Below, one piece after another: positions 36,454 through 56,350 of a stretch of 64,000 bases of DNA. The notes below the pieces were generated by a model. It did no database searches. It was not told the DNA's origin and saw nothing but the letters and a program-made list of their open reading frames with translations. Made by a program: the position numbers and the translations under genes. The first letter of the stretch is position 1. Each line of letters opens with the position of its first letter. The DNA lies in the NCBI GenBank assembly GCA_000987045.1, contig LAKY01000049.1:37735-101734 (forward strand), given 5' to 3'. Source of the DNA: Clostridiales bacterium PH28_bin88. Its GTDB lineage: Bacteria; Bacillota; PH28-bin88.

Positions 36454-37419
36454 CTACATCAAATGGCAGGCCACCCAGTGGTTCTCCGTCTTCTGTACCA
36501 GCCGGGGTTCTTCTACCTCGCACCTGCCATAGGCATAGCGGCACCGGGTACGGAAACGGCAGCCGCTGGGAGGGTCGACGGGGCTGGGGACATCCCCTTC
36601 CAGCACGACCCGTTCAAGCTTAATGTCTACACTGGGAATTGGTATGGCCGACAGGAGCGCCTGGGTATAAGGGTGGCATGGGTTTTGAAAAAGTTCTTTT
36701 TTGCCGGCAAGCTCCACCAGTTTCCCCAGGTACATGACAGCGACCCGGTCGCTGATATACTTGACCACGCTCAGGTCGTGGGAGATGAAGATATAGGTCA
36801 GCCCGAACTCCCGTTGGAGTTTCTTTAACAGGTTGATCACCTGGGACTGGATGGACACGTCCAGGGCTGATACCGGTTCGTCACACACGATCAGCCTGGG
36901 ATGCAGGGCCAGCGCCCTGGCGATGCCGATGCGCTGCCGCTGGCCCCCGCTGAATTCATGGGGGTATTTCTTGGCGTGCCCGGGCGTCAGGCCAACCACT
37001 TCCAGCAGGTAGTTGACCCGTTCCTCTCTCGCTTTGCGGTCCTTCACGCCGTTAACCAGCATGGGTTCCCCGATAATGGAGCCCACGGTCATCCGGCTGT
37101 TAAGGGAGGCATAGGGGTCCTGAAAGATTATCTGCATGCTGCGGCGCAACTGCCGCAGCTCATTCTTGTCCAGCTCAAAAATGTTCCTGCCTTCAAAGAA
37201 GGCCTGCCCGCCGGTGGGTTCCAAAAGCCGCAAGATCACCCTGCCCAGGGTGCTCTTGCCGCACCCGCTCTCGCCCACGATGCCGAAGGTTTCCCCGGGG
37301 TTGACGTGGAAGCTGACCCCGTCTACCGCCTTGACAAAGCGCTGCTGCCGGGCCAGGAGACCCGCCTCTACCGGAAACCACTTCTTCAAGTCCTTGACTT
37401 GCAGTAACCCTTGCTGCAT
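36454..37419 (-). CDS. oppF: Oligopeptide/dipeptide ABC transporter ATP-binding protein
   Basis: Walker [10 protein letters not shown], signature [15 protein letters not shown], and C-terminal oligopeptide-type CxxxC motifs. Confidence 0.85.
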
Positions 37420-37420
37420 C

Positions 37421-38407
37421 TCACGCCACCTGCCTGCCCGGTTGATCTTTCAGCCAGCACCTGACCCAGTGCCCCTCGGCTGCTTGACGCAACGGGGGTT
37501 CCTCTTTAACGCAACGGTCTTGCTTGTAGGAACAGCGCGGGTTAAAGCGGCAGCCCGGGGGCATGTGGAGCGGACTGGGAACGGTCCCCGGAATGGCATG
37601 CAGTTGCTCGTTGTCCTGAGCCAGGTAGGGGATGGACCGCATCAGGCCCTCGGTGTAGGGGTGCATCGGGCTGCGAAAAAGGGTGGGCACATCGCTCTCC
37701 TCCACCACCTTACCGGCATACATGACCACCACCCGCTGGGCCATTTCGGCCACCACACCAAGGTCGTGGGTGATCAGCATGATAGATGTATGAAGGTCTT
37801 CTTTCAACTTTTTCATTAATTGCAGTATCTGGGCCTGGATGGTTACATCCAGGGCGGTGGTCGGCTCATCGGCGATCAGAAGCTTCGGGTTGCATGACAG
37901 GGCCATGGCAATCATCACCCTCTGCCGCATCCCGCCCGACAACTGGTGGGGGTATTCCTTTACCCGGCGGTCAGGAAGGGGTATGCCCACCATCTTCAGG
38001 GCTTCAACGGCTTTTTCGATGGCCTCTTTTTTATTCAGGCCCTGGTGCAACCGGATGGCCTCGGCTACCTGGTCTCCGACAGTGTAAACCGGGTTCAGGG
38101 AGGTCATGGGCTCCTGGAATATCATGGAGATGTCGTTGCCCCTGATACCCCTCATCTCGGCCGCGGTCTTGGTCACCAGGTCTTCGCCCTGGAACAGGAT
38201 GCGCCCGCCCACGATGCGGCCCGCGTAGGGCAGCAGCCGCATGACGGACAGGGCGGTGATGCTCTTGCCGCACCCGCTCTCGCCCACAACGCCCAGGGTT
38301 TCACCCCGGTTAATGCGGAAGCTGACCCCGTCTACCGCCGGGACTACTCCTTCATCGGTATGGAAGTGTGTGCGCAGATCCTGGATGTCTACCAGTGGAT
38401 GGTCCAT
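37421..38407 (-). CDS. oppD: Oligopeptide/dipeptide ABC transporter ATP-binding protein
   Basis: [36 protein letters not shown]. Confidence 0.85.
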
Positions 38408-38424
38408 GATCTTCCCTCCCTTCC

Positions 38425-39330
38425 CTAATTCTTCTTCTTTCTGATCTTAGGATCTAGAATGTCCCGCAGCCCGTCGCCAAACATGTTCAACGACAACACG
38501 CACAGGGTGATGGCCAGCCCGGGAAAGATGCTGACCCACGGGGCGCGCCACATAAACACCCTTCCCTCGTTGAGGGTGGCGCCCCAGCTGGGGATCTCCG
38601 GCGGGACCCCGACGCCGAGAAAGCTCAAGGATGCCTCCGCCAGGATGGAGTAGGCGAAGATCATGGTTGCCTGGACGATCACGGGGGCGATACAGTTGGG
38701 CAGGATATGCAGCAGGTTGATCCTGAGGTCGGAAGCCCCGATAGCCCTGGCGGCCTCCACGTACTGCTGTTCCCGCTGCACCAGCACCGCGCTCCTGACC
38801 ACCCTGGCCATCCGGGGGGCGTACACGATGGATAAGGCCATAATCACGTTGGACAGCCTGGCCCCCAGGGCGGCCATGATGGCGATCTGCAGGATGATGG
38901 CGGGAAAGGCCATCAAGCCGTCCAGAACGCGCATCAGGATGTTGTCCAGTTTGCGGTAGTAACCGGCCAGCAACCCCAGAATGATGCCCAAAGCGGTGGT
39001 GACCACCACCACGCTGCCGCCTACGGCAAGAGAGATGCGGGTGCCGAAAATGACCCTGGACAGGATGTCCCGGCCAAAACCGTCCGTGCCGAAGACATGC
39101 TCACCACCCGGCGGGAGCAGCCGCCGGCCCGGCTGGATGTCCCCCGGGTCAAAGGGGCTGATGAGAGGAGCGCCGGCGGCAACCAGTACCAGCAGGCAAA
39201 ACACCACGGCCCCTGCCAGGGCGCCCTTGTTCTTGCTCAAAAGCCACAGCCAGTACCGGAAAGTCCCCGGGGATGGGGCTGACAGTATGCGCTTTTGCTC
39301 CCGCGCTGCGATTTCTGCCATGGGCCTCAC
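38425..39330 (-). CDS. oppC: ABC transporter permease (OppC/DppC type)
   Basis: Six TM segments and EAA-like loop [23 protein letters not shown]. Confidence 0.8.
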
Positions 39331-39338
39331 TCACCTAG

Positions 39339-40280
39339 TCAGATTTTAATCCTCGGATCTACGTACATGTAAACGATGTCCACGATGAGATTGATGAGCA
39401 CGTAAGCGGCCGCGATGTACAGGACAATCCCCTCGATCACCGGGTAATCCCGCCCGGCCACCGAGGTGATGAGCAGCCGGCCGATGCCCGGAATGTTGAA
39501 GATCTGTTCGGTCACCACCGCGCCGCCCATCAGGTTGGCAAAGGTCAGCCCGATAACGGTGATGGTCGGTATCAGGGCGTTTTTCAGGGCGTGTTTGAAG
39601 ATAACAATCCTCTCTACCAGACCCTTGGCCCGGGCGGTCCTGATATAGTCGTTCTGCAGCACTTCCAGCATGTTGGCCCTGGTCATCCTGGCGATGACCG
39701 AGGCCTGGCCCAGGGCCAGCGCCAGGGCGGGCAGCGCCAGGTAGCGTAGGGTCAAGGGAACCCCTTTACTTAACGGGGCGTAGCCCGCTACCGGCAGCCA
39801 GCCCAGCGTCAGGGCAAAGACCAGGATGAACATCAACCCCAGCCAGAAATTGGGAACGGCCACGCCCAGCGAGGTCAGGAACATCACCAGTTGGTCCAAG
39901 AATTTGTTGTGCCGCACGGCGGCGATCACCCCGGCCACAATGCCGATGGTCACTGACAGCAAGAGAGACAGTCCCGTCAGCAGGAGAGTGGCCTGCAGGT
40001 GTTCATAAATGGCCCGGTTGACGCTGCGGTTTAAAAAAATGGATTCCCCCATGTCTCCCCGCAGGATCCTGGCGAACCACTCCACCATCTGCTGGGCCAG
40101 CGGCTTGTTGAGACCCATCTCTTCCCGCAGCCTGTCGATGGCTTCCTGGGTAGCCTCCTGGCCCAAAATGGCGGCAGCCGGGTCCCCCGGAGCCACGTGC
40201 ATGACCACAAACACCACCAGGCCCACGATCAGCATTACCGGGACGAGAGCCATGACGCGCTTCAACAAAAAGGATGGCAA
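39339..40280 (-). CDS. oppB: ABC transporter permease (OppB/DppB type)
   Basis: N-terminal FLLKRVMALVPVMLIV and YIRTARAKGL motifs. Confidence 0.8.
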   Translation of the reverse strand: MPSFLLKRVMALVPVMLIVGLVVFVVMHVAPGDPAAAILGQEATQEAIDRLREEMGLNKPLAQQMVEWFARILRGDMGESIFLNRSVNRAIYEHLQATLLLTGLSLLLSVTIGIVAGVIAAVRHNKFLDQLVMFLTSLGVAVPNFWLGLMFILVFALTLGWLPVAGYAPLSKGVPLTLRYLALPALALALGQASVIARMTRANMLEVLQNDYIRTARAKGLVERIVIFKHALKNALIPTITVIGLTFANLMGGAVVTEQIFNIPGIGRLLITSVAGRDYPVIEGIVLYIAAAYVLINLIVDIVYMYVDPRIKI

Positions 40281-40351
40281 CGGTTATCTCACTCCCTGGG
40301 TGAAAAGGGGCTGGCGGCGGGTCCAGTGCTCCGGCCACCAGCCCTACCCGT

Positions 40352-41926
40352 TTATTTCTTCAGCCATACGTTCCAGAAGAAGAGGTCCATCTTGTTGGCA
40401 AAACCCTCGACTTCGTCTGAATAAATCCGCAAGTTGGAGTAGTCCCCGATCTTGACGGCGGGAACCTCCTCGTAGAAGAGGGTCTGCACCTGCTTCCAGA
40501 GCTCATAACGCTTCTGGAAGTCCGATTCTTTACGCAGCTGGTCCATCAGGGCCTCCAGCTGGTCGTTTTCCCACCAGCCCGCGTATGATGAACTCACGAT
40601 CACCATCTGGGTGGGGTCGGGGCGAGCGGTCATCCCGGTGCTGAAGGCGTCCCACTGCTCCGGTTTACCGCGCTTGTCGGTGAGAGTTGCCCACTCCATC
40701 GACTGCAGGTCGATGTTAAACCCGGCTTTCTCCAGCTGGCTTTTGGCCGCCAGGGAAAAGTTATACTCCAGGGGGCCGGTCATCCAGCGGACGGGCTCGC
40801 CCTTGTACCCCGCTTCCGTCAACAACTGTTTAGCTTTCTCGATATTCTTCTGGTTGTACTTGTCCGCGCCGGCATCGGTCCACCAGGCCTGTTCCTTGAA
40901 CATGATGCTGGGGTCCAGGCGCCAGAAGTCCTTGTGGCCGTACCCGGCTGTCATGATGGGATCCATGTCCAGGGCGGCGAGGAACGCCTGCCGGATGAGC
41001 TTATCGCTCATAATGCCCTGCTTTTTGTTAAAGACCACGGCGAACCATCCCCTGGGCTGGGAGGCTACCGCCTTGATACCCTTGGCGGATTTCAAGCGGT
41101 CGTACTCGTCCACGGGGACGAAATCCGCGAAGTGGTACTCCTTACCTTCCACCCCGGCCACCCGTACCGCGGCATCGGAAATGGGAACGAACAGGATCTC
41201 GTCCAAGTAAGCCACCTTCTTACCGCCGTAACCCGTGGCCTCAAAGTCAACCGGCTGGTAATCGTCATACCGCTGGAGCTTGATATGCTGGTTGGGTACC
41301 CATTCCACAAACTTGTACGGGCCGGTGCCGATGAACTCCTTCACAGGTTCAGCCCCCGCGGCTTCCACGATTTCCTTCGGGTAGATGACCGCGCCGCCGT
41401 TGGGCATGGCCAGGAAGACCAGCAACAGGTTGGTGGGCTGGGATAAAGTGATCTTCACGCCGTATTTACCGTCGGGCTCCACCGAAGAAATGCTCTTGAA
41501 AATGCTTTTTCCATTGCTGGAGGTTTCCCCCCATCTTTTAAGGGATGCCACCACGTCCTCGGAGGTGAGTTCTTTGCCGTTATGGAACTTCACCCCTTCG
41601 CGCAGGGCGATGCTGTACACCAGGCCGTCCCCGCTGACCTGGTGATCCTTGGCCAGCATGGGAATGACTTCCCACTTGTCGTTTAGCGTGAACAACCCTT
41701 CAAAGATGTGCCAGCCCACCTGGAATACCAGGTTGGTGGTGGAGAGGTGGGAGTCCAGGGTGGGAGGCGCCGCATCGATAACCACCTTCAGACTCCCGCC
41801 CATCTTCGAGTCAACGCCTGGTGCGGCCGTCCCGCCGTCCTTGGGAGACCCACAGGCGGTCACCAAAAACACCGCTAACAGCATCAACACCGCCAGTTTC
41901 GTTAATGTTGTCTTTCTCACTCTCAC
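40352..41926 (-). CDS. oppA: Family-5 extracellular solute-binding lipoprotein (peptide/nickel/opine type)
   Basis: Lipobox LVTACGS and SBP_bac_5-like length and composition. Confidence 0.8.
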   Translation of the reverse strand: MRVRKTTLTKLAVLMLLAVFLVTACGSPKDGGTAAPGVDSKMGGSLKVVIDAAPPTLDSHLSTTNLVFQVGWHIFEGLFTLNDKWEVIPMLAKDHQVSGDGLVYSIALREGVKFHNGKELTSEDVVASLKRWGETSSNGKSIFKSISSVEPDGKYGVKITLSQPTNLLLVFLAMPNGGAVIYPKEIVEAAGAEPVKEFIGTGPYKFVEWVPNQHIKLQRYDDYQPVDFEATGYGGKKVAYLDEILFVPISDAAVRVAGVEGKEYHFADFVPVDEYDRLKSAKGIKAVASQPRGWFAVVFNKKQGIMSDKLIRQAFLAALDMDPIMTAGYGHKDFWRLDPSIMFKEQAWWTDAGADKYNQKNIEKAKQLLTEAGYKGEPVRWMTGPLEYNFSLAAKSQLEKAGFNIDLQSMEWATLTDKRGKPEQWDAFSTGMTARPDPTQMVIVSSSYAGWWENDQLEALMDQLRKESDFQKRYELWKQVQTLFYEEVPAVKIGDYSNLRIYSDEVEGFANKMDLFFWNVWLKK

Positions 41927-41952
41927 TTGACCTCCTTTGAAGAAATATGGGG

Positions 41953-43401
41953 CTAAGCGCTCGGTTCCTGTGCAGCCTGCCTTCCCGCTCCCTCCTTCCC
42001 TAGAAAGTAGGTGCTGTTGTCAAGGTCTATTTGCTGGTATGGAGCCTGCCGTTTCCGCATGTAGTTGACGCCTCTTTCGGTGGTCAGGATTTTACCCGGG
42101 TGGTTAATCAGCACCCCGGAAACCATGCATACTTTCCCGCCGATCATGGTCAGCGCCGCCTCACCGGTGTCCGGGTCCACCACGGCGACGTCCGCGTCGG
42201 CGCCCGGGCCCAGGTGGCCCTTGTTAATTAAACCAAACATCCGGGCCGGCTCGGATGAGCTTTTGGCTACCAGTTCCGCCAGGGTAAGGGCCCCGAAATG
42301 CACCAGGGCCATGCCGTAAGTCAGGATGCAGTTCCTGGGAATCATCCCCCCGTCGCTGCTCAGGGCATCCACCACGAACCGCCCGCCGTCATCTTTGGCG
42401 GTGGCGCAGACCATGGCGGTAACCCGCAGGTTGACCGGGAAGGAAAGGCCGGCCCTGGTGTTGTTTCTTTCCCACGCCAGCACCGCCTGCTCTCCCCACA
42501 ACTGCCTCACTTCGGCGCCCACGGGCACGTAGACGGAGGCGTACCCGTCCATGATCGCCTGCCTGATACCCTCCTGGGTCACGGGGTAGCCGCGTTTCCG
42601 CAAGCAGTTGCGGGTGACATGGCTGGCCGGTACCCCGTTTTCACATCGCCCGCTGGTCCCGTTAAAGGGAGCCAGGTGCGATTCGGAAACAACATTTGGC
42701 GACCGGGCAAGAAGGTCCATGGCCTGTCTCAGTTCCTCCAGGGGATCGCTGACCATACCCCTGCAGTAAGCGTTGATGTGGGCAATATGTACCGGAAAAC
42801 CCGCGGCCAGCCGGACCGCCTGTTCCAGCCCCAGGATGTCGCTTCCCGCCGTGGTGCTGCCCGCGTGAAAGGCGACGTACCCTCTCTCCCGGTAAGTAAG
42901 CTCGATGATTTTACTGATGGTGTCGGGGCTCAGCGGGTAGTGCCCACCCAGCACCTTCATCCCCAAAGCGCCGTGATCCATGGCCAGGTCGATGGCTGTT
43001 CGGATTTCCTCTTCCGTCCCCTCCTGCCCGGCCAACCCTTTCCCCGGCCAGATTCCTTCCAACACCGCCATGTTGAGGCCGGAACCATAGGCGGCGATCT
43101 CCTCGATCACCACGTCCACAGGTCCCTCCATGTCCACCGCCGTGGTCACTCCCGCCTTCACCAGCATCCGGTAGCCCGCCCCTCTGGCTTCGGGCCGGGC
43201 GGTGTGCACATGAGTATCCACCACCCCCGGGATCACCAGTTTGCCTGTCACGTCGATCACTTCGGCGCCCGGCGCGGCGCCGGCGCCGTGGTCCAGTCCG
43301 ACCACTTTGCCTTCCTGGATGACCAGGTTCCCGATGGTATCCACCCCGTTGGCAGGGTCGACAATTCTTCCTCCACTGAGGACAAGACAGGTAGCATGCA
43401 T
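41953..43401 (-). CDS. Amidohydrolase-superfamily metallohydrolase (dihydroorotase/deacylase-like)
   Basis: RIVDPANG...GKVVG...VIDVTGKLVIPGVVDTHVH is a typical amidohydrolase N-terminus. Confidence 0.7.
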   Translation of the reverse strand: MHATCLVLSGGRIVDPANGVDTIGNLVIQEGKVVGLDHGAGAAPGAEVIDVTGKLVIPGVVDTHVHTARPEARGAGYRMLVKAGVTTAVDMEGPVDVVIEEIAAYGSGLNMAVLEGIWPGKGLAGQEGTEEEIRTAIDLAMDHGALGMKVLGGHYPLSPDTISKIIELTYRERGYVAFHAGSTTAGSDILGLEQAVRLAAGFPVHIAHINAYCRGMVSDPLEELRQAMDLLARSPNVVSESHLAPFNGTSGRCENGVPASHVTRNCLRKRGYPVTQEGIRQAIMDGYASVYVPVGAEVRQLWGEQAVLAWERNNTRAGLSFPVNLRVTAMVCATAKDDGGRFVVDALSSDGGMIPRNCILTYGMALVHFGALTLAELVAKSSSEPARMFGLINKGHLGPGADADVAVVDPDTGEAALTMIGGKVCMVSGVLINHPGKILTTERGVNYMRKRQAPYQQIDLDNSTYFLGKEGAGRQAAQEPSA

Positions 43402-43420
43402 GAGTAAAACGCCTCCCGGT

Positions 43421-44275
43421 TTAGAGGTAAAAATCGAATTCTTTGTTGGCCTCGTCCAGGCCGGCCAGGGCGCGGGCCGCCTTTTCCTTGTTGTCCAGCG
43501 CGATGTTAAGCACCAGCGCGTCCAGGATCACCATGGTGGCCGCGTAGGAGTTGGCAAACCCCGTGGGGTTGGTGCTCTTGGCGGCAAGCACCAGATCGGC
43601 GCCCTGGCCAATGGGGGAGTGCATGTTATCGGTGATGGCGATAACCGAAGCTCCTTTCTTCTTTGCAAATACCATTCCTCTCAGGGTATCCCTGGAGTAC
43701 CTGGGGTAGCTGATGACCACCAAAACGTCTCCCGGCTGGAGGGTGCCCAGGGTTTCGAACATCCAAAATCCACCGGAGGTGATCTTCTCCACCGGCAGTC
43801 CCAACCTTTTCAGGTGAAAGCCCAAAAACTCCGCCAGGGAGGCGCAGCTGCCCACTCCCAAGAGGAGTATCCGGTGCGCTGTGGACAGCCTGCCGACAGC
43901 GGCCGCAAAGCTCCGGTGATCGAAAGCGGAAAAGGTTTTTTCTATGTTGGACAGGACATCTTTAAAGACCATGGCTACCGCTTCGTTCTTTTCTTTTACG
44001 TTCATCAGGGTCTTTTGCATTTTAATGGACGGGGGCTCTTCCTGCTTGACAATTTCATAAATCTCGTCTTTAAGCTGGCTGTAGCCGGAAAAGCCCACAG
44101 ACTGGCAGAACCTGATGACGCTGGCGTCACTTACCCCCACTCTTTCCGCGACTTCCTGAGCACTGAGAGAGGGGATATCCTTGTAGTTCCGCAGGATATA
44201 TTCGGCGATCGCCTGGTGGCCGGTTGAAAGTCCAGGTATTTTCTGTTCGATGATCTGGAACACGGGAGCAGCCAC
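43421..44275 (-). CDS. RpiR/MurR-family transcriptional regulator (HTH_6 plus SIS domain)
   Basis: GHQAIAEYILRNYKDIPSLSAQEVAERVGVSDASVIRFCQSVGFSGYSQLK, followed by a SIS-like domain. GTG start. Confidence 0.8.
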   Translation of the reverse strand: MAAPVFQIIEQKIPGLSTGHQAIAEYILRNYKDIPSLSAQEVAERVGVSDASVIRFCQSVGFSGYSQLKDEIYEIVKQEEPPSIKMQKTLMNVKEKNEAVAMVFKDVLSNIEKTFSAFDHRSFAAAVGRLSTAHRILLLGVGSCASLAEFLGFHLKRLGLPVEKITSGGFWMFETLGTLQPGDVLVVISYPRYSRDTLRGMVFAKKKGASVIAITDNMHSPIGQGADLVLAAKSTNPTGFANSYAATMVILDALVLNIALDNKEKAARALAGLDEANKEFDFYL

Positions 44276-44383
44276 GTTATCACTCCTTGTAGTGTTTACT
44301 ATGTTTTATGTCGTCCTGTAGCGCGTGCTACATGTTATTCGACCAGCATCGTCCATATTCCTGCCTGGCCGGGAACTATTTTC

Positions 44384-44418
44384 GAAAAATTAGCCCCCGG
44401 GGGACGAACCCCGGGGGT
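44384..44418 (-). terminator. Rho-independent terminator of the sigma-54 activator gene
   Basis: CCCCCGGGG-ttcgt-CCCCCGGGGG followed by CTAATTTTT on the minus strand. Confidence 0.75.
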
Positions 44419-44444
44419 GGGAAGTGAATTAAGATGTTCTGTTG

Positions 44445-46233: not shown

Positions 46234-46257
46234 AAAAAGGGAGGGCCTAGCCCTCCC
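46234..46257 (-). terminator. Rho-independent terminator after the symporter gene
   Basis: The minus strand reads GGGAGGGC-tag-GCCCTCCC followed by TTTTT. Confidence 0.75.
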
Positions 46258-46279
46258 ACTCTTGATTGCCGGTGAAGTT

Positions 46280-47719: not shown

Positions 47720-47799
47720 CTCTTAACCTCCTTCTCTAATTTTGCCGCTATTTCGCATTCCTTCCCTGATCAGTTCCCTTTTCCCAGGCATCACCTCCT

Positions 47800-48045
47800 T
47801 TAGCCGCCGCCCAGGGGCGGCAACAGCGCTATCTCATCCCCGTCGGCCAGGGGGCGCAGGGTTTCGGCCCGGCGCCCGTTCACCAGCACCAGCATTACCT
47901 CGCCGCGGGGAATGGAAAACCTGTCCAGGAGGTCACCCACGGTGACCCCTTCCTCTATCTCCAGGGCGGCCGCATTGTGATGGTAGCGCCGCCGCACATA
48001 TTCGCCCAGGGTGGCAATCCCTTTAACCCGCACTCGCATCTTCAC
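47800..48045 (-). CDS. MoaD/ThiS-family ubiquitin-like small protein
   Basis: 81 aa ending ...LLPPLGGG. Its ATG overlaps the AOR stop (ATGA). Confidence 0.7.
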   Translation of the reverse strand: MKMRVRVKGIATLGEYVRRRYHHNAAALEIEEGVTVGDLLDRFSIPRGEVMLVLVNGRRAETLRPLADGDEIALLPPLGGG

Positions 48046-49751
48046 GCACCCCCGTATACCGCGTCCAGTTCTTCTTCCGGAACGTCAAACACCGTCTCGT
48101 GGGGGTGCAGCCTCTCTTCCCCGAAGAACTCGGGCAGCCGGTCGTGAGCCCGGTCAAACCCCGCCCGCCGGTTGAAGCCCCTTTCCACTTCAATCACTCG
48201 AGCGCTTACGGCTTCCAGGTCCCCGGTCGTCCACTCCCGCCCGGTGAAGCCGCTCAGCAGTTCCGCAATTAGGCGCCGGTCTTCCAGGAAGGGTGCCCGG
48301 GTAAACCAGCAGAGGCCCAGGGTATCGAAGAGGGCGTGGGCCAGGCCGAAGAAGCGGGCGTACTCCCGCTGTCCCCCGGCCCCCAGGGGGTCTACCTTGC
48401 CCCCCAGGCCGTTGCCGTTGGTGTGGTCCGCCCCCATGGGAGACGTGGCGTAGGTGACGCCGGCCCCCTTCAAGGCCCTGGGGTCGTAGGCGGCCATACT
48501 CTGGCCCTTGACCACCGGCACCCGCCGCACCCCCAGCACCCGGCCGGTGATGGCGGCACCCTGGCCCAGGATCTTTCCCAGGTAGGTGCCCTGGACCATC
48601 TCCTCGATGAGTTCCCGCATCCCGCGGGAGTCGCCGAAGGGCAGCACGCCGGCCTCCATGGCTACCGCCAGGGCGGCCCCCACCTCCATGGTGTCCAGGC
48701 CCAAGTCGTCGCACAGTCGGTCCATGGCGGCGATGGCGTCCAGGTCGTCCACCCCGCAGTTGGACCCCAGCATGCCGATGGTCTCGTATTCCAACCCGGA
48801 GGTCAGGTAGCGCCCTGCCGCGTCGTTGTATACGTTGGAACACCTGATGATGCAGCCCGGGTGGCAGGGGTGGCCGGCTACGCCGCCCCGCTCCCTGACC
48901 AGCCGGAGAAAGGTGTCCCCGTTGATGCGGGAAGCCCCTTCGAACCGGCCGGTAGAATAGTTGCGGGTGGGCAGTGCGCCCGCTTCGTTGACAATATCCA
49001 CCAGGGCGGTGGTGCCGTAGGTAGGTAGGACCTTGGCGGTGGTGGGGTTGGTCCTCAAGGCGCTCACGAAACCCCGAAGCGCCTCCCGGAACCTTTCCGG
49101 GTCGCGGGGAGCTACCTGGCCGGGGGAGGGCTTGTCCAGCACAACGGCCTTGATCCCCTTGGACCCCAGGACGGCCCCCATTCCGCCCCTGCCCGCGTGG
49201 CGGGAGGGCTGGCCCTCGGTGTTGGTGACCGCCACACTGGCCAGGGGCAGCATCCGCTCGCCGGCAGGCCCGATGGAGATGACGGAAACCTGCCGGCCGT
49301 ACCACTCACGCAGGGCGGCGACCAGGTCGTAGTTGCCCAGCCCCACCAGGTCTCCGGCCGGCTCCAGCCTGGCCCCCTCCGGGGATATATATAAAAGATG
49401 CCAGTGCCCCGGCTCCGGGGAACCCGCAAAAACCACCGCCCGGTAACCCAGGCGCGCCAGCCGCTGGCCGGCGGTACCCCCCACATTGCTCTCCTTGATG
49501 GTCCCGGTAAGGGGGCTCTTCCCGCCCACGGAAAGCCGGCCGGAGCAGGGCACGGCGGACCCGGTCAACAGGCCGGGGGCGATGACCACCTTGTTGTGCC
49601 GGCCCAGGGGGTGGGCGGTTGGAGGCACTTCCCGGGCCACCAGGCGGGAGGCCAACCCCCGCCCTCCCAGGTGTTCCCATTCCGCGTCCAGGGGGTGGCT
49701 GGTTATGTTGCCTTTCTCTGTATTTACTCTTAATACCTGCAAAGAACTCAA
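48042..49751 (-). CDS. aor: Aldehyde:ferredoxin oxidoreductase (tungstopterin AOR family)
   Basis: N-terminus LRVNTEKGNITSHPL..., GGRGLASRL, and a 4Fe-4S ligand region. About 570 aa. The real start is probably the TTG at 49742 (GGGGG-N9). Confidence 0.8.
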   Translation of the reverse strand: MSSLQVLRVNTEKGNITSHPLDAEWEHLGGRGLASRLVAREVPPTAHPLGRHNKVVIAPGLLTGSAVPCSGRLSVGGKSPLTGTIKESNVGGTAGQRLARLGYRAVVFAGSPEPGHWHLLYISPEGARLEPAGDLVGLGNYDLVAALREWYGRQVSVISIGPAGERMLPLASVAVTNTEGQPSRHAGRGGMGAVLGSKGIKAVVLDKPSPGQVAPRDPERFREALRGFVSALRTNPTTAKVLPTYGTTALVDIVNEAGALPTRNYSTGRFEGASRINGDTFLRLVRERGGVAGHPCHPGCIIRCSNVYNDAAGRYLTSGLEYETIGMLGSNCGVDDLDAIAAMDRLCDDLGLDTMEVGAALAVAMEAGVLPFGDSRGMRELIEEMVQGTYLGKILGQGAAITGRVLGVRRVPVVKGQSMAAYDPRALKGAGVTYATSPMGADHTNGNGLGGKVDPLGAGGQREYARFFGLAHALFDTLGLCWFTRAPFLEDRRLIAELLSGFTGREWTTGDLEAVSARVIEVERGFNRRAGFDRAHDRLPEFFGEERLHPHETVFDVPEEELDAVYGGA

Positions 49752-49777
49752 CCCCCTTTGCTCAGAATTCAGCTACG

Positions 49778-49913
49778 CCATGGGGACGGTTCCATCGTCT
49801 CCCCGATTAAGGAATGGGGACACACCTGCTGAAGCCCGGGCTGGTCTTTTGGGACAGGAATGTCCCCAACTAAGCTTCGCTACGTTTCGGGGACGCTCGA
49901 ACCGTCCCCATGG
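49778..49913 (+). repeat. GGGGAC-hairpin palindromic element, full form, inside the operon
   Basis: CCATGGGGACGGTTCCATCG...GGGGACGCTCGAACCGTCCCCATGG. Near-identical to 24743-24877. Confidence 0.95.
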
Positions 49914-49945
49914 CTCCGCTTACTTTTACCAAACCGTTCTCTCAT

Positions 49946-49965
49946 TCTGACTCCTGACTCCTGAA
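49946..49965. repeat. Tandem heptamers (minus strand TCAGGAG)
   Basis: tctgactcctgactcctgaa, directly after the stop of 49966-51150. Confidence 0.8.
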
Positions 49966-51150
49966 TCAGGATGCTTCCTGCCTGGTTTGAAAACGGGTAA
50001 TGCTGAAGGGCCGCAGGGTTTCCGGCACCTGCCCGGCGGCCAGGCACTCCGCCATCAGCATCCCGGTAACCGGCGCCAGGGCAACCCCGTCTCCCTCGTG
50101 GCCGGCGGCCATGTAGAAACCTTTGATCTCCGGCACCGGGCCCAGGATGGGCAGGCCGTCGGGGGTGTAGGGCCTGAGGCCCGCAAAGGTACGGATCAGG
50201 TTGATGTGCTTGATGGCCGGCACCAGCCGGACGGCGTTGGTGGCGATAGCGGTGAGGGCGCCGTAGGTGGTACCGCGATCGTACCCCACGAACTCCCGGG
50301 TAGCCCCGATGAGGAGGTTGCCGCTGTGGGTCTGGCCGAGGGAAAGCCCCACCCCCATCCGGGCGGCCTTGCCCGTGGCCCTGGCCACCAGAGCCGGGTT
50401 GTGCTTGGCCACAATGTACTTGGCGCTCAAGATGTCCCCGTGGATGAGTTTGGGCACCGGTTCCGACACCAGGATCTGGCCCCGGCGGGGTTTGATGGGG
50501 ATCTCCAGCCCCACCATGCGGCCCACTTCGGGGGCATAGGCCCCGGCGCAGTTAACCACCTGCCGGGCCCGGATTTCGCCCCGGTCGGTAACCACCCCGG
50601 TTACCCGGCCCTGCTCCGTCAGGATGCCGGTAACATTGGTCCCCAGGGCGATCCGGGCGCCCAGCCGGCGGGCGGCCCGGGCAAAGGCCAGGGTGAGGTT
50701 GATGGGGTTCACCTCAGCGTCCATGGCGCTGTGGGTAGCGCCTACGATGTGCCGGCTCAGGGCAGGCTGGCGCGTGAGCGCCTCCTCCCTGTCCAGCAGG
50801 TCCACCGAGAGGCCAATCTCTTGCTGGCGGCGGACAAAATCCCGCATTACCGCCAGTTCTTCTTCGGTCTCGATGACGATCATGCCGCCGTCCCGGGAGT
50901 ATTCCAGGTCCGCACCCAGTTCATCCCCCAGAGCCGGGTAGATGGCGGCGCTTTTCAGGGCCAGCTGCAGGTGCAGGCCCGGGTTTTTGGACTGGAGGAT
51001 GACCGCCTTGTCGCACGCCCCGGAGGAACCAGCGGCCAGGTCGGCCCTCTCTACCAGCAGCACCTCGCGGCCCTGCCTGGCCAGGTAGTAAGCGATGGAG
51101 GTGCCGATGGCCCCACCGCCGATGATCACTGTTTCCGCAGCCGTCATCAC
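49966..51150 (-). CDS. FAD-dependent oxidoreductase, DAO family (beta/HcnC/OoxB-like subunit)
   Basis: VIIGGGAIGTSIAYYLARQGREVLLVE is a dinucleotide fold. The length and C-terminal HEGDG region are typical of sarcosine-oxidase-beta, proline-dehydrogenase-beta or HcnC proteins. Confidence 0.8.
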   Translation of the reverse strand: MMTAAETVIIGGGAIGTSIAYYLARQGREVLLVERADLAAGSSGACDKAVILQSKNPGLHLQLALKSAAIYPALGDELGADLEYSRDGGMIVIETEEELAVMRDFVRRQQEIGLSVDLLDREEALTRQPALSRHIVGATHSAMDAEVNPINLTLAFARAARRLGARIALGTNVTGILTEQGRVTGVVTDRGEIRARQVVNCAGAYAPEVGRMVGLEIPIKPRRGQILVSEPVPKLIHGDILSAKYIVAKHNPALVARATGKAARMGVGLSLGQTHSGNLLIGATREFVGYDRGTTYGALTAIATNAVRLVPAIKHINLIRTFAGLRPYTPDGLPILGPVPEIKGFYMAAGHEGDGVALAPVTGMLMAECLAAGQVPETLRPFSITRFQTRQEAS

Positions 51151-51428
51151 TCATCGTCTCCTTCCAGGAGAATGCCTATGGGGATGGTCCGCACCGGCGG
51201 GCGGCTGGTGGGCGGCAGCAGGTCCTCCACCTTTTGCCCGGTGGCCCCCGCCAGGATACCGGCTACCTGCTTGCGGCAGGTGCGGCCCTGGCACAGGCCC
51301 ATGCCGGCCCGGGTACGGCGCTTGACCCCGTTCAGGGTGACTGCGCCGTCGGCGACGGCTTCTTCTATCTCCCGCCGGGAGACTTCCTCGCAGCGGCAGA
51401 TGATTATCTCCTTATTCACGAGTTGCAC
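51147..51428 (-). CDS. BFD-like (2Fe-2S)-binding small subunit
   Basis: IIICRCEEVSRREIEEAV...RTRAGMGLCQGRTC. Confidence 0.75.
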   Translation of the reverse strand: MQLVNKEIIICRCEEVSRREIEEAVADGAVTLNGVKRRTRAGMGLCQGRTCRKQVAGILAGATGQKVEDLLPPTSRPPVRTIPIGILLEGDDE

Positions 51429-51931
51429 CTCCCCAGCCTGGCCATAGACCGGACCTGATCGGCGAACTCGCGGGGTACCGCCAGGGAAACCACCGCGGTG
51501 CCGTCGTTCCTGTCGGGTTTTCTCACCTTGATCACTTTACCGCCGGTGACCACCCGGCCGCCCCGGTCGGTGGCCTGTACCTCGTCCCCCTCGCGGGGAA
51601 GAGGCAGGTACTCGTAGGGGAAGGACACCAGGGCCTGCCCGTCCCCGTGGTTGTAGTCCACCTGGAAGATGGCCAGCCCGGGGCAGGCCGGTATGCAGGC
51701 GCCGCAGCCGGTGCACTTCTCCTCGTCCAGCCGGGGCAGCCCGGTGATGGGAACACCCACCCGGATGGCTCCCCGGGGGCAGGAGTACTCGCAGGGGTTG
51801 CACGGGATCTCCTGGACGCATTCAATCACCGCCACCGGCCCCCGCTCCAGCCGCCCGGGGCTGGGCCTCCCGGGGCACCGGGACAGTTCTTCCGCTGAGG
51901 GTTCACCTGTATAGACAATGCCTGACTTCAT
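51416..51931 (-). CDS. 4Fe-4S dicluster ferredoxin-like subunit
   Basis: I prefer the start MKSGIVYTG at 51931 (ATGA overlap with the upstream stop). Motifs CNPCEYSCP and CTGCGACIPACP. The longer track ORF to 52336 is an Arg/Gly-rich artefact. Confidence 0.75.
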   Translation of the reverse strand: MKSGIVYTGEPSAEELSRCPGRPSPGRLERGPVAVIECVQEIPCNPCEYSCPRGAIRVGVPITGLPRLDEEKCTGCGACIPACPGLAIFQVDYNHGDGQALVSFPYEYLPLPREGDEVQATDRGGRVVTGGKVIKVRKPDRNDGTAVVSLAVPREFADQVRSMARLGRCNS

Positions 51932-53019
51932 GCCTGACACCTCGCCTTGATCAGTTCCTGCTTGGCGTCCTGCCGGTGCTGCCCGAAGGGGCCGGTCCGC
52001 AGGGCCGCCAGTCTCTCGAGAACGGCTGTCTTTTTCTCCGCGGCCCGCTCCGGCGGGCAGCAGCCCAGGGCTTCCGCCGCGGCCACCCCGGCCAGCCGGC
52101 CTTCTTCCATGGCGGAGGAAGCCTCTTCCACGCCGGTGATGTCTCCGGCCACGTAGATGCCCTTGACGGTGGTCTCCATGTTCCCGTCGTGCAGGGGCAC
52201 GTGCCCGCCCAGTTTGGGGATGTAGGCAAAACGGCAGCCCGCCATCCAGGCCATTTCCGCCAGGGGGGTCAACCCTACCGCCAGGCAGACGGTGTCCACT
52301 TCCAGGGTTTTTTCGGTGCCGGGTACGGGGCGGCACCCCTCGTCCAGTTCCACGATGGTGGCGCTCTCCACTTCTTGGGAGCCGGACACCTCCCGGACAG
52401 TGTGAGAGGTAAGGATGGGCACGCCCGCCCGGCGTACCTTGGCGGCGTGCACCCCGTAGCCGCTGATGTGCGGCGCCGCCTCCACCAGGGCGACCACGTC
52501 AGCCCCCGCCTGCATCAACTGGTAGGAAACAATCAAACCCACGTTGCCCGATCCCACCATCAGCACCCGCCGGCCGGGCAGCACCCGGTGCAGGTTGATC
52601 AGGGTCTGGGCCGCCCCGGCGGTCATCACCCCCGGCAGGGTGGAACCGGGGAAGGAAAGGGCGTTCTCCGACGCCCCGGTGGCCAGGATCAGGGCCCCTG
52701 CCTGGTACAGGCTGCTGGCCATGTTTTCCATCACCGCCAGCTGCCTGTGCTGGTACAGCCCGTAGACGGTGGCGTTCAGGTGAACGTCCACCCCCAGCCT
52801 CCTGGTTTCCGCCAACAGATCTTCTCCTATCTTGAAACCCCTAGTCCCGGCCTGGTGTTCCCGGGAACCGAAGAACTTGTGGATCTGCTTGAAGAGCTGC
52901 CCTCCCGGCAGTCCGTTCTCGTCAAACACCGTCACCCGGGCCCCCGCCGCCGCGGCCTCGATGGCCGCCGCCAGCCCCGCCGGACCCGCGCCTACCACGG
53001 CAACCTGGATGTTTTTCAC
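51928..53019 (-). CDS. NAD(P)/FAD-dependent oxidoreductase (alpha/HcnB/OoxA-like subunit)
   Basis: VAVVGAGPAGLAAAIEAAAAGARVTVFDE plus a second dinucleotide fold VLMVGSGNVGL. Confidence 0.8.
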   Translation of the reverse strand: MKNIQVAVVGAGPAGLAAAIEAAAAGARVTVFDENGLPGGQLFKQIHKFFGSREHQAGTRGFKIGEDLLAETRRLGVDVHLNATVYGLYQHRQLAVMENMASSLYQAGALILATGASENALSFPGSTLPGVMTAGAAQTLINLHRVLPGRRVLMVGSGNVGLIVSYQLMQAGADVVALVEAAPHISGYGVHAAKVRRAGVPILTSHTVREVSGSQEVESATIVELDEGCRPVPGTEKTLEVDTVCLAVGLTPLAEMAWMAGCRFAYIPKLGGHVPLHDGNMETTVKGIYVAGDITGVEEASSAMEEGRLAGVAAAEALGCCPPERAAEKKTAVLERLAALRTGPFGQHRQDAKQELIKARCQA

Positions 53020-53336
53020 GCGCTGTCACCCCACCGTCCCAGGCCCAGTTGGGTCTCGATGACCATGCCGCCGCGCACCGGGGTGACGCAGGTCCGCACG
53101 TTGGGAACCCCGTCCACCGTCATCATGCAGTCGGTGCAGCGGCCGATACCGCAAAAGACACCCCTGGGTTCTCCTTTTTTGTGAGTGCGGCGGAACACCC
53201 GGATGCCCGCCGCCATTAACGCGGCGGCAATGGGCTCTCCCTCGTAGGCCTCGACAGGACGCCGGTCAACGGTAATGGTTACTCTGGTCCGTTCTGCAGG
53301 TAGTGCGCCCAATACTGGATGGTCTGTTACCCGCAC
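53016..53336 (-). CDS. (2Fe-2S)-binding small subunit (HcnA / sarcosine-oxidase-alpha N-terminal type)
   Basis: GTG start at 53336, 10 nt after AAAGGAGG. Motif GVFCGIGRCTDCMMTVDGVPNVRTC. The track extension to 53756 has non-coding character. Confidence 0.75.
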   Translation of the reverse strand: MRVTDHPVLGALPAERTRVTITVDRRPVEAYEGEPIAAALMAAGIRVFRRTHKKGEPRGVFCGIGRCTDCMMTVDGVPNVRTCVTPVRGGMVIETQLGLGRWGDSA

Positions 53337-53407
53337 GACAAGTGCGCCTCCTTTTAGCGTGTTGAGCAGTATAATTTGCTTTGTTACGACAAGCGTGTAT
53401 TTCTTAT

Positions 53408-53423
53408 TGCAAGATCCGTTCCA
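53408..53423 (-). promoter_or_regulatory. Sigma-54 (-24/-12) promoter
   Basis: The minus strand reads TGGAACGGATCTTGCA, against the consensus TGGCACG-N4-TTGCA. GG and GC have the exact spacing. It lies about 72 nt upstream of the GTG at 53336. Confidence 0.7.
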
Positions 53424-53542
53424 CGGCCTGCTGAGAGGGCAAATAAAAATACCAGGGCCCCTGGGAGCCTGGTATGACTGGCTCGGCCTGGTTGGCGGCA
53501 ATTGCCGGCCCAGTCCTCTCCGGTTGTTCCCGGTCGGCCTAT

Positions 53543-53557
53543 TTCCGATTTTCGGAA
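53543..53557. promoter_or_regulatory. Palindromic candidate enhancer (UAS) site 1
   Basis: TTCCGA-ttt-TCGGAA perfect inverted repeat, about 125 nt upstream of the sigma-54 promoter. Confidence 0.5.
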
Positions 53558-53599
53558 CTATCCGGGTACCCACCCCACTATACCACGCGACTGTTATCA

Positions 53600-53614
53600 T
53601 TCCGATAATCGGAA
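53600..53614. promoter_or_regulatory. Palindromic candidate enhancer (UAS) site 2
   Basis: TTCCGA-taa-TCGGAA. A third partial site, GATTATCGGAA, is at about 53624-53634. Confidence 0.5.
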
Positions 53615-53735
53615 ATATATTATGATTATCGGAAAAGGGCATCAGGGGGTACCCCCTCAACAACCCACACGGATCAAGAAAAAATAATCTGCAAAATGGG
53701 ATTGAAAGCTGAAGGAAAAAGGTTATAATATAAGC

Positions 53736-53861
53736 AAAGGGAAGGTGGTTACACACCCTCCCCGGCTTTGGGCAATGCGGCCCGGAGCACCAAACTCCAT
53801 TTGTGGTCTATTTACTGCGGGAAGAAGGACGTTTTGAGCGGAACGTCCTTCTTCTTTTTTT
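53736..53861 (+). ncRNA. Candidate about 125-nt small RNA (antitoxin-like, locus L3)
   Basis: TTGAAA-16-TATAAT at 53702-53729. Strong terminator GAAGAAGGACGTT-N8-AACGTCCTTCTTC plus T7 at 53821-53861. No convincing ORF. It overlaps the 3-prime 54 nt of the minus-strand small ORF. Confidence 0.45.
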
Positions 53862-53942
53862 CGCCCCGTTTCCGGAACGCCGGATCAAAGCCACAATAAC
53901 CTGGAAAACCCCAGTAATTATCGCGGCAGCGATTTGCGTCAT
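53808..53942 (-). CDS. 44-aa hydrophobic peptide with a highly basic tail (candidate type-I toxin, locus L3)
   Basis: GGAGG-N9-ATG at 53942; MTQIAAAIITGVFQVIVALIRRSGNGAKKRRRTFRSKRPSSRSK. An upstream CTTCCTCCTCTCTCCC (plus-strand coordinates 54011-54026) can sequester the SD. Promoter TGGTCA-17-TATAAT at 54076-54081 / 54053-54058. Confidence 0.4.
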   Translation of the reverse strand: MTQIAAAIITGVFQVIVALIRRSGNGAKKRRRTFRSKRPSSRSK

Positions 53943-54140
53943 AGGCCACCACCTCCTCTCCCCACAACTCCGAAGTACCGCCATACTCCGGGCTGCGCAC
54001 TGCCCCACGCGGGAGAGAGGAGGAAGCCGGAGGAAACATATTCCTAAAAAGCATTATAACCTATCCTTAAGATGGTGACCAGAGTAAAAATTGAAACACG
54101 CTTATAGGGCGGCTTGAAAGGCATCGTTTCCTGAACGGGC

Positions 54141-54175
54141 TAAAAACACGAATGCCGCGGTTTTTTGCCGCGGCG
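54141..54175 (-). terminator. Probable terminator of the saccharopine-dehydrogenase-like gene
   Basis: The minus strand reads GCCGCGGC-aaaaaa-CCGCGGC followed by ATTCGTGTTTTT. Confidence 0.55.
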
Positions 54176-54316
54176 CCCGTGCCCTTAGGTTAATTGCTTT
54201 GGTTAAAAGCAATCATACTACTAGTTCTACCCCTCGGCCGAATCTCCTGCCTGTCCACAGTGGTAATTTCTTATTATCTTGGGAAGACGCAGGGGCAAAT
54301 GACGACGTGGAAGAGG

Positions 54317-55429
54317 TTACTTAAGCCCCTGGGTACAGTGCACGTTGATGTTCCGTTCGGCCAGGGCGGCGATAAAGGCGTCAGGATCCACCGCCCCGGG
54401 AGCCTCGGGGGCGAAGACTCCCGCCCGCCGGATCTGGCCCCGGCCCAGCATCAGCGCGCCGATGGCCAGGGGCACCCCGGTAAGATTGTTCATGTGGTCA
54501 GCGGCCTGGTAAACCAGGTGCTGTGATTGGCCGGCCCGCTCGCCCTTGATATCCACCCGGATGCCCGAAATGGGCACACCCGGTTTGCCGACTTTCTCCA
54601 GGGCCGGCAGGATGGTCTTGATTATCTTGCCGACCACCTGTTTCTTGCGGCGGGTGTTGGTCAGCCGGAGGCGGGCGATGGCCACTGCCAGGCTGTTCAA
54701 GAACTCTTCCGTAAGCCCGCCCTTCAGGGTGACTGTTTTGACTCCGGGAATATAGCGGGGAAGGGTGACCGGTTCGGGGTGGCCCAGGTGAAACATGGAT
54801 ACCCGGCCCAGGGGCTCGATAAACTCCACCCGCTCCTTGCCGCTGCCCGCCGCTACCCGCACCTGCCGGCCGCCAGTAAAGCTGGGGACCTGCCCGGTAA
54901 AGATGTGGATGGTGTGCAGGACCACCGCAAATCCGGTGGAATCGGCGGAGGCTCCGGCCCAGTAGATATTGATCTCGTCCACCCGGTCCAACTGGTCTGC
55001 TCCTTTGCGGGCCAGCACGTTGCTAAGACCGGGCGTCCACCCCATGCCGGTCAGTACCTTGACCCCCAGTTCCCCGGCCCGCCCGTCCAGCGGCAGGATG
55101 CTTTCCACCGCGTCGTAGTCGTCGCAGATGCTGGTGTAGTTGACCCGGGCCTCCAAAGCGGCCTCCACCATCACCTTTTCGTACCTGTAAAAGGGACCGA
55201 TGGCGCCGGCGGCCACATCGTGACCGCGCATCGCCTCCACCAGGGTGCGGGGTTGGTTGGCATCCACCTGAACTACCTTGACCTTCTCCCCCGACTCCGA
55301 GGCAAGCTTCCTGGCGGCGGCTAGGTTAAGGTCGGCGATGGTCAACTCCGTCACTTCCGGCTGGCGCGCCAGGTCCCGCACCGCCCGGCTGCCCATGTCC
55401 CCCGCCCCGCCCAGTACCACGACTTTCAT
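54317..55429 (-). CDS. Saccharopine dehydrogenase family NAD(P)-binding enzyme
   Basis: MKVVVLGGAGDMGSRAVRDLARQPEV N-terminal Rossmann fold. The 370-aa length and C-terminal domain pattern fit the Sacchrp_dh family. Confidence 0.7.
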   Translation of the reverse strand: MKVVVLGGAGDMGSRAVRDLARQPEVTELTIADLNLAAARKLASESGEKVKVVQVDANQPRTLVEAMRGHDVAAGAIGPFYRYEKVMVEAALEARVNYTSICDDYDAVESILPLDGRAGELGVKVLTGMGWTPGLSNVLARKGADQLDRVDEINIYWAGASADSTGFAVVLHTIHIFTGQVPSFTGGRQVRVAAGSGKERVEFIEPLGRVSMFHLGHPEPVTLPRYIPGVKTVTLKGGLTEEFLNSLAVAIARLRLTNTRRKKQVVGKIIKTILPALEKVGKPGVPISGIRVDIKGERAGQSQHLVYQAADHMNNLTGVPLAIGALMLGRGQIRRAGVFAPEAPGAVDPDAFIAALAERNINVHCTQGLK

Positions 55430-56298: not shown

Positions 56299-56350
56299 CT
56301 CTGGTCGGGTTTCCCCTCCAACCTCCGACCTCTCACTTCCCACTTCCCAA

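Follow-up and report, generated by a model that had tools for sequence, protein, structure and literature searches.

Introduction

Chromosomal integration hot spots, the variable regions between core genes, are an established concept in comparative genomics and include genomic islets that carry no mobility genes. A region of this kind is described here in a 64,000-nucleotide stretch of contig LAKY01000049.1 from Clostridiales bacterium PH28_bin88 (GCA_000987045.1), hereafter the window, with positions counted from its first nucleotide. Between the conserved genes ywmB and atpC, the window holds a block of 19 open reading frames (ORFs), and this junction, which separates two conserved transcription units, is probably a permissive and variable spot, where four independent units have come to stand side by side in the orientation of their flanks, one of them a sigma-54 operon that would oxidise an imino acid. 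Like integration hot spots, the region has conserved core flanks (the atp operon on one side and ywmB-murA-spoIID on the other), cargo that differs between lineages, patchy accessory genes, and a toxin-antitoxin pair at its edge. Unlike them, it shows no integrase, tRNA, insertion sequence, att repeats or compositional signal, and its cargo consists of four separately evolving units.

The only unusual part of the block is its sigma-54 operon, which recalls several described systems. Thermococcus profundus and Pyrococcus horikoshii possess an alpha-beta-gamma-delta dye-linked L-proline dehydrogenase/NADH dehydrogenase (PDH1; 1Y56), and the wider family of this complex includes the opine dehydrogenase OdhABC, the D-hydroxyproline dehydrogenase LhpBEF, and HcnABC (PMC4575208, PMC4364671). 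In Clostridia, a gene for aldehyde:ferredoxin oxidoreductase (AOR) paired with moaD is known to be under the control of sigma-54 and AorR (PMC6615313). Bacterial 4-hydroxyproline clusters comprise 4HypE, a D-hydroxyproline dehydrogenase belonging to the DAAO (D-amino acid oxidase) family, a Pyr4H2C deaminase of the DHDPS family, and an alpha-ketoglutarate semialdehyde (alpha-KGSA) dehydrogenase of the aldehyde dehydrogenase (ALDH) family, and the combination of DAAO, DHDPS and ALDH is an established signature of 4-hydroxyproline catabolism (PMC4113996). The locus is compared with each of these systems below.

A Variable Junction Between atpC and ywmB

The two genes were located in 60 relatives, namely one species from each of 57 other families of the phylum and three other species of the same family. 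Gap lengths were taken from the 16 genomes, this one included, in which atpC and ywmB lie on one contig. The junction is tight, at about 1 kb or less, in 11 of the 16 genomes and in 11 of the 13 outside the family (243, 358, 367, 552, ~760, 766, 779, 844, 912, 966 and 1004 bp), and adjacency of atpC and ywmB is therefore taken to be the ancestral state. The other four relatives have gaps of 1613, 3178, 5195 and 19195 bp. In PH28_bin88 the gap is 20414 bp (20.4 kb), in agreement with the first-pass annotation of this DNA, which had described an interrupted ywmB-atpC junction. It is occupied by a vapBC pair and 17 further genes, every one of them on the minus strand, which also carries the atp operon and murA-spoIID. 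The 19 ORFs were found where they had been annotated, and each of the families named for them was recovered with Pfam or NCBIfam models (Table 1).

Other lineages carry different cargo at the same position. Within the family, one species has two unknown ORFs (G001), a second has a YheO-type regulator, RidA, a pyridoxal-phosphate enzyme, a racemase that is truncated, and two small genes resembling a toxin-antitoxin pair (G003), and the third has, up to the end of its contig, a PIN protein and an altronate-dehydratase-like gene (G002). In two unrelated families, the junction holds MFS and HlyD genes (G023) and, over 19 kb, M20 peptidase, SDR, ABC-2, DnaJ and CitMHS genes (G048). Apart from a distant PIN protein, none of the cargo of these five genomes is homologous to the block studied here. 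Because three species of the family and two unrelated families hold differing cargo, the junction is best regarded as a repeatedly used variable hot spot. The genes of the block are present at this position in none of the three other family species and none of the 57 other families sampled, and its marker genes are rare among the 60 relatives (symporter in 0, saccharopine-dehydrogenase-like gene in 3, amidohydrolase in 2). The comparison of synteny thus bears out the earlier proposal that the block is specific to this lineage; the 17 genes are not shared at this position by the related genera sampled. A metagenome scan with ywmB yielded no relatives, and an exact-sequence look-up of atpC returned no further record.

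Toxin-antitoxin-like or PIN genes lie at the junction in genomes of a sister genus (L003, G003:C12, 4902-5523; L008, G002:C59, 3636-4106), and the larger cargo may therefore have arrived at a site that already held a toxin-antitoxin module.

Table 1. Features of the atpC-ywmB region, in window coordinates.
Feature	Position	Strand	Evidence or remark
ywmB (DUF1779), left conserved flank	34641-35378	-	PF08680 4.6e-28; adjoins atpC in most relatives
VapC (PIN)	35588-35983	-	PIN 2.4e-17; VapC NCBIfam models
VapB (AbrB-type)	35967-36257	-	AbrB-family TIGR01439 1.1e-14
Terminator after oppF	36419-36392	-	
Module 1: rpiR, amidohydrolase, oppA (SBP_bac_5), oppB, oppC, oppD, oppF	36454-44275	-	Pfam
OppF, D, C, B, A	36454-41926	-	Pfam
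Amidohydrolase	41953-43401	-	Pfam
RpiR regulator (HTH_6+SIS)	43421-44275	-	Pfam
Terminator after activator gene	44417-44394	-	
Sigma-54 enhancer-binding activator (PAS, AAA+, HTH_8), monocistronic	44445-46154	-	Sigma54_activat 2e-75
Terminator before activator gene	46257-46239	-	
Module 2 operon: Fer2_4, Pyr_redox_2 (alpha), Fer4 (gamma), BFD (delta), DAO (beta), gap, AOR, MoaD, SSS	46280-53336	-	Pfam
SSS symporter	46280-47719	-	Pfam/NCBIfam
MoaD/ThiS-like protein	47800-48045	-	Pfam/NCBIfam
AOR	48042-49751	-	AFOR_N 209 bits, AFOR_C 267 bits, full length
DAO-AOR gap, 214 bp, GGGGAC-hairpin repeat element	49752-49965		Inverted repeat I1 at 49766-49925
DAO	49966-51150	-	Pfam/NCBIfam
BFD [2Fe-2S]	51147-51428	-	Pfam/NCBIfam
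Fer4	51416-51931	-	Pfam/NCBIfam
Pyr_redox_2	51928-53019	-	Pfam/NCBIfam
Fer2_4	53016-53336	-	Pfam/NCBIfam
Predicted sigma-54 promoter (-24 GG/-12 GC)	53423-53408	-	TGGAACGGATCTTGCA; 72 nt upstream of first gene
Two palindromes TTCCGA-N3-TCGGAA	53543-53557, 53600-53614	-	2 found, 0.15 expected
Terminator of saccharopine-dehydrogenase-like gene	54174-54154	-	
Saccharopine-dehydrogenase-like NAD(P) oxidoreductase, stand-alone	54317-55429	-	PF03435 + PF16653 (Sacchrp_dh)
Terminator-like hairpin downstream of atpC	55587-55560	-	Terminator scan
atpC, right conserved flank	55789-56193	-	ATP-synt_DE_N 1.4e-27

Separate Units Within the Block

The block may be divided into the vapBC pair (unit 1), the RpiR-amidohydrolase-Opp cassette (unit 2, here Module 1), the sigma-54 operon (Module 2) with its activator (unit 3), and the saccharopine-dehydrogenase-like gene (unit 4). 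The first-pass annotation had leaned towards a single acquired island, and one horizontal transfer of a genomic island would indeed account for 19 contiguous, co-oriented genes with regulators and terminators of their own, for markers that are all patchy among relatives, and for a toxin-antitoxin pair at one edge. Such an origin is nevertheless highly unlikely, because the units are found separately, at other loci and in other genomes, and two of them were together in no genome or contig examined. Module 1 occurs alone, and colinear, in the sister-genus genome G003 (contig C2; 75-83% amino acid identity), where its flanks correspond to contig C47 of PH28_bin88 and not to the atp region, and the seven-gene cassette recurs, again colinear, at ~56% identity in GCA_036681025.1. 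Module 2, activator included, is colinear in the Bacillota metagenome-assembled genome (MAG) Soudan_17 (L027; 56-72% amino acid identity), in rock-porewater contigs from essentially the same organism (L039-41) and in GCA_013178305.1 (L042), and near none of these loci were atpC, ywmB, Module 1 or the saccharopine-dehydrogenase-like gene found. Orthologues of the latter (68-79% identity) are everywhere stand-alone genes in unrelated neighbourhoods, with the nearest homologue (79% identity) on short contigs that end just upstream of the gene.

The block also lacks the marks of mobility that a single transferred island might show. No integrase, recombinase or transposase was found inside it or at its edge, all ORFs of at least 70 amino acids between 35378 and 55789 falling in other families; there is no tRNA in the whole window, and no direct-repeat pair was found bracketing the block. 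Codon usage and GC content at third codon positions (GC3), examined as a compositional test of island against flanks, do not set the two apart: GC3 of the block genes is 0.70-0.88, equal to that of the atp and murA flanks, codon bias behaves likewise, and Module 2 and atpA/atpD alike stand at about the 99th percentile of GC3 in the genome. The sole deviant is the low-GC vapBC pair (GC3 0.47-0.52, 6th-10th percentile of genome ORFs). A 570-amino-acid ORF at the C47 site that matches the location of Module 1 in G003 was considered as a repeated insertion sequence and ruled out, since it is single-copy.

Host-like composition is also what a block ancestral to the family would show, had it survived here while the three other species lost it by deletion or replacement. 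The identity of Module 1 to its counterpart in G003 is at least that of housekeeping neighbours (60-86%) and is compatible with vertical descent of this module in the family. As an account of the whole block, this history is decidedly unlikely. The cassette of G003 lies at another locus and was not found in G002, a congener of G003; none of the three family members has Module 2 or the saccharopine-dehydrogenase-like gene; and the junction is tight in most genomes outside the family. The genome of PH28_bin88 is 4.98 Mb, ~60% larger than the 2.4-3.2 Mb of the three other species, which fits gain of genes in this lineage in general better than loss elsewhere.

An assembly of independent units at a permissive site thus remains the preferred reading of the block, and the likeliest route of their arrival would be homologous or illegitimate recombination without a dedicated integrase. 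The earlier interpretation of an acquired or lineage-specific metabolic island can be retained in part. The block is lineage-specific and self-regulated, with an RpiR regulator, a sigma-54 activator and terminator-like hairpins on the coding strand 3' of four genes (oppF, those for the activator and the symporter, and the saccharopine-dehydrogenase-like gene), but it is a mosaic without a transfer signature and not one functional unit.

The Sigma-54 Operon and Its Predicted Regulation

Module 2 has the features of a sigma-54-dependent operon as far as these can be recognised in sequence, namely a predicted -24/-12 promoter, an adjacent AAA+ activator gene, conserved upstream sites and an rpoN gene elsewhere in the genome (C48:85263-85739). 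Hairpins isolate both the operon and the activator gene. The longest ORF of the first gene, Fer2_4, begins at 53756 and was rejected as an over-extension, with the domain confined to its last 90 residues; the start was corrected to a GTG at 53336, which is preceded by a AAAGGAGG ribosome-binding site and lies downstream of the promoter. Some 120-190 nt further upstream than the promoter are two perfect TTCCGA-N3-TCGGAA palindromes. Soudan_17 and the porewater contigs have this palindrome as well, ~240 nt upstream of the operon's first gene, and a -24/-12 match precedes the first gene in GCA_013178305.1. An activator orthologue, 60% identical, adjoins the matching operon in Soudan_17. It is plausible that the activator would bind the TTCCGA-N3-TCGGAA sites and open the -24/-12 promoter.

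The best NCBIfam model for the activator is PrdR. Assignment to PrdR was rejected, as the score is 463 bits against a cut-off of 795, the palindrome is not TGT-N10-12-ACA, and no prd genes are adjacent. With the Clostridia operons controlled by sigma-54 and AorR (PMC6615313), Module 2 shares the succession of an AOR gene and a MoaD-like gene, a promoter of the sigma-54 type, and a PAS-AAA+ activator of its own. It differs in that the pair is embedded in an amino-acid-oxidation operon and in the upstream site, which is TTCCGA-N3-TCGGAA instead of the TGT-N10-12-ACA of AorR and PrdR.

A Candidate Pathway for Imino-Acid Oxidation

The five flavoprotein and Fe-S genes of Module 2 have the subunit set and the order (alpha-gamma-delta-beta) of the T. 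profundus-type L-proline dehydrogenase (PMC4364671, PMC4575208). As in the enzymes of Thermococcus profundus and Pyrococcus horikoshii, alpha is a Pyr_redox_2 protein, beta a DAO protein, gamma a two-cluster Fer4 protein and delta of the BFD type, and among PDB entries the DAO subunit is closest to 1Y56_B (7e-47), which is the beta subunit of the L-proline dehydrogenase from P. horikoshii. Unlike the Thermococcales enzymes, the complex comes from a bacterium, a gene of its own (Fer2_4) encodes the N-terminal [2Fe-2S] domain of alpha, and the genes form a predicted transcription unit with AOR, MoaD and an SSS symporter under predicted sigma-54 control; activity on L-proline is predicted from similarity. 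The best PDB matches of the AOR are themselves AORs (9mqx and 1aor).

From this gene content, the operon most likely imports and oxidises an imino acid of the proline family. The SSS symporter would import the cyclic imino acid, and the alpha-gamma-delta-beta complex, as a bacterial counterpart of the Thermococcus-type enzyme, would oxidise it to a cyclic imine that would open to an omega-aldehyde. The AOR, presumed to be tungsten-dependent and matured with the MoaD-like protein, would then oxidise the aldehyde to the acid and pass the electrons to ferredoxin. In the case of L-proline, the route would run through pyrroline-5-carboxylate (P5C) and glutamate semialdehyde to glutamate. The operon here has no DHDPS gene, and this minimal gene set fits a substrate whose imine opens spontaneously to the aldehyde. 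L-proline appears to be the best candidate, with pipecolate as an alternative.

The strongest clue to the role of the AOR comes from other genomes. Symporter orthologues (57-73% identity) occur in Tepidanaerobacteraceae, Geosporobacter, Ammoniphilus and others, and the symporter gene adjoins DAO-type genes in all seven neighbourhoods examined, six of them outside this genome. What lies between DAO and symporter varies. Two lineages have a DHDPS-family gene together with AOR (and, in one of them, MoaD), one has DHDPS alone, GCA_049323755.1 (L043) has an ordinary aldehyde dehydrogenase (Aldedh) in place of AOR, and Geosporobacter and Ammoniphilus have no gene in this slot. That AOR or ALDH can fill the same slot suggests that the flavoprotein step leads to an aldehyde, which the AOR then oxidises. 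Where DHDPS accompanies the orthologous operons, it stands at the DAO-AOR position (L039:6942-7820, L042:7232-8119, L027:9129-10007). In PH28_bin88 this position is taken by a 214-bp gap with GGGGAC hairpins, in which no DHDPS remnant was found.

These relatives also suggest a different chemistry, in which the compound degraded by the operon family would be converted to the semialdehyde of aspartate or of 2-oxoglutarate, the aldehyde for AOR would be made by a lyase or deaminase of the DHDPS type, and the copy described here would be degenerate or re-purposed. Candidate substrates would be 4-hydroxyproline, through an Lhp-like pathway, or piperidine- or pyridine-2,6-dicarboxylate. Two other lineages with AOR have a DHDPS gene between DAO and AOR, and two more have one beside DAO-type genes, which argues for this route, as do the DAAO-DHDPS-aldehyde dehydrogenase signature of 4-hydroxyproline catabolism (PMC4113996) and the Aldedh that stands in for AOR in L043. 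With the 4-hydroxyproline clusters, these operons share the sequence of imino-acid oxidation, ring opening to an aldehyde and aldehyde oxidation, and other Bacillota operons combine DAO, DHDPS and either AOR or ALDH. Module 2 differs from such clusters in that AOR replaces the NAD(P)-dependent aldehyde dehydrogenase and in that its genome has neither an operon DHDPS nor an epimerase. The absence of an operon DHDPS here, where dapA is a housekeeping gene only, and of any gene of the proline-racemase or hydroxyproline-epimerase family, together with a beta subunit whose nearest solved relative is an L-proline dehydrogenase, makes this reading somewhat unlikely. Two more specific candidates were rejected. 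Module 2 has the DAO complex of an Lhp-type 4-hydroxyproline cluster, but no operon DHDPS and no Aldedh gene, and there is no Pro_racemase family gene in the genome. The DHDPS-like gene on C71, the sole close DHDPS homologue in the genome, is not a relocated pathway gene but the housekeeping dapA, in a dapB-dpaAB-asd-dapG-dapA cluster.

Several observations weigh against the account favoured here, in its view of the locus as well as of the operon. Host-like codon usage is equally expected of an old, vertically inherited block. The nearest genomes compared belong to other genera of the family, none to the same genus, and the genome is a MAG with an estimated contamination of 6%. The activator scores under the PrdR cut-off, and its palindrome differs from the published PrdR motif. 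No proline-racemase-family gene, hydroxyproline epimerase included, is found in the genome. A DHDPS-family gene, missing here, is present in both other AOR-bearing lineages and exceeds the equivalog cut-off for DapA, and the operon of one of them (L039, the Soudan/porewater organism) includes aspartate ammonia-lyase; in those relatives, the two genes point to substrates other than proline and to an aspartate-semialdehyde route. Trees of the SSS and DAO proteins (8-12 taxa) are unresolved and do not distinguish loss of DHDPS from its never having been present.

With these points in mind, we tentatively propose that Module 2 may represent an undescribed, strictly anaerobic form of imino-acid oxidation, for substrates of the proline or hydroxyproline family, in which a bacterial alpha-beta-gamma-delta complex of the proline-dehydrogenase type and a tungsten AOR are combined in one sigma-54 operon and the AOR replaces P5C or KGSA dehydrogenase, yielding reduced ferredoxin and not NAD(P)H.

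The same genome has a paralogous cluster on contig C55 (148001-165140; L045), where a heteromeric dehydrogenase of the DAO type is coupled to AOR for a second time. It comprises genes for a sigma-54 activator, a PucR-like protein, DAO, a LIV-type ABC importer, a GntR/FCD regulator, Fer2_4, Pyr_redox_2, Fer4, BFD, Fer4, a 722-amino-acid AOR-family protein, OCD/mu-crystallin and a second DAO. When the block proteins were searched against their own genome with tblastn, the sigma-54 activator gave 47 matches and the AOR 17, numbers that refer to local alignments, not to genes. The AOR frame of Soudan_17 (L027, 10001-11098) encodes only 336 amino acids that match residues 204-566, and the near-identical porewater copy (L039, 7850-9556) is intact at 568 amino acids; the short version reflects either a truncated gene or a fault in the assembly of the MAG. 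A PRK07475-type Asp/Glu/hydantoin-racemase-like gene adjoins the five-gene flavoprotein complex in unrelated genomes (L011, G022:C1, 13480-15742; L043, 6551-7204), and in G022 an alanine-dehydrogenase-family gene adjoins the complex as well.

Module 1 and the Remaining Features

By Pfam, Module 1 encodes an Opp/Dpp-type ABC importer, with an SBP_bac_5 protein, a pair of BPD_transp_1 permeases and a pair of ABC ATPases that end in oligo_HPY. The best PDB relatives of its binding protein are uncharacterised, and the weaker ones include AgaA and AccA, which bind opines, and AppA, which binds peptides, all of them distant. The amidohydrolase has invariant residues H64, H66, K149, H179, H205, H208 and D350, in the metal-site pattern HxH...K...H...H...D. 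Its AlphaFold model is confident (pLDDT 90.7) and has the fold of the N-acyl-D-amino-acid deacylases (D-aminoacylase 1M7J/1V4Y; N-acyl-D-glutamate deacylase 3GIP), FhcA/FwdA, the hydantoinases and the GlcNAc1A deacetylase OngB (TM 0.60-0.65). It differs from these enzymes in sharing only 13-19% identity with them, in its invariant lysine, the position at which D-aminoacylase has a cysteine, and in its constant linkage with an importer of the Opp type and a regulator of the RpiR type. To our knowledge, neither the amidohydrolase nor the cassette has a characterised close relative. It is reasonable to suppose that a binuclear-metal amidohydrolase of the D-aminoacylase/hydantoinase branch and the Opp importer would together take up and hydrolyse an N-acyl or peptide-like compound. 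The first-pass annotation had put forward a modified peptide or an opine- or Amadori-like compound as a possible substrate.

At the ywmB edge, vapBC is a predicted type II toxin-antitoxin pair, in which the gene for a small DNA-binding antitoxin precedes that for a PIN toxin with a 17-nt overlap. At the atpC edge, the saccharopine-dehydrogenase-like gene is monocistronic and has no conserved partners; its best PDB match is carboxyspermidine dehydrogenase (1.8e-9), and none of the three relatives that carry it belongs to the family. The spacer between this gene and atpC contains, on the minus strand at 55560-55689, a near-consensus extended -10 promoter (TTGCCG-16-TG-TATAAT) followed ~75 nt later by a terminator with a 10-bp stem, an arrangement that could represent the terminator of the atp operon together with a leader or other short transcript. 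Rfam models detected no riboswitch or RNA family in the 30-64 kb portion of the window. Identical copies of a 28-nt GGGGAC...GTCCCC hairpin lie in the atpC-atpD spacer (56274-56301) and in the DAO-AOR gap (49889-49916), and this repeat family has invaded both a housekeeping operon and an accessory operon.

Implications

As an island, the block is ordinary, being one more case of accessory genes that collect where a permissive junction separates conserved operons. That these spore-forming anaerobes have used the atp-ywmB junction repeatedly as a variable site is useful for the comparison of MAGs, and the conserved RpiR-amidohydrolase-Opp cassette offers a well-defined target for substrate discovery. 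The part of the block most worth attention is the sigma-54 operon, in which AOR is joined to a complex of the proline-dehydrogenase type. If AOR does replace the aldehyde dehydrogenase of proline or hydroxyproline oxidation in this organism, this would provide a physiological substrate for one AOR among the many in anaerobic Bacillota that are still orphans, and would show an oxidative amino-acid pathway rewired to ferredoxin.

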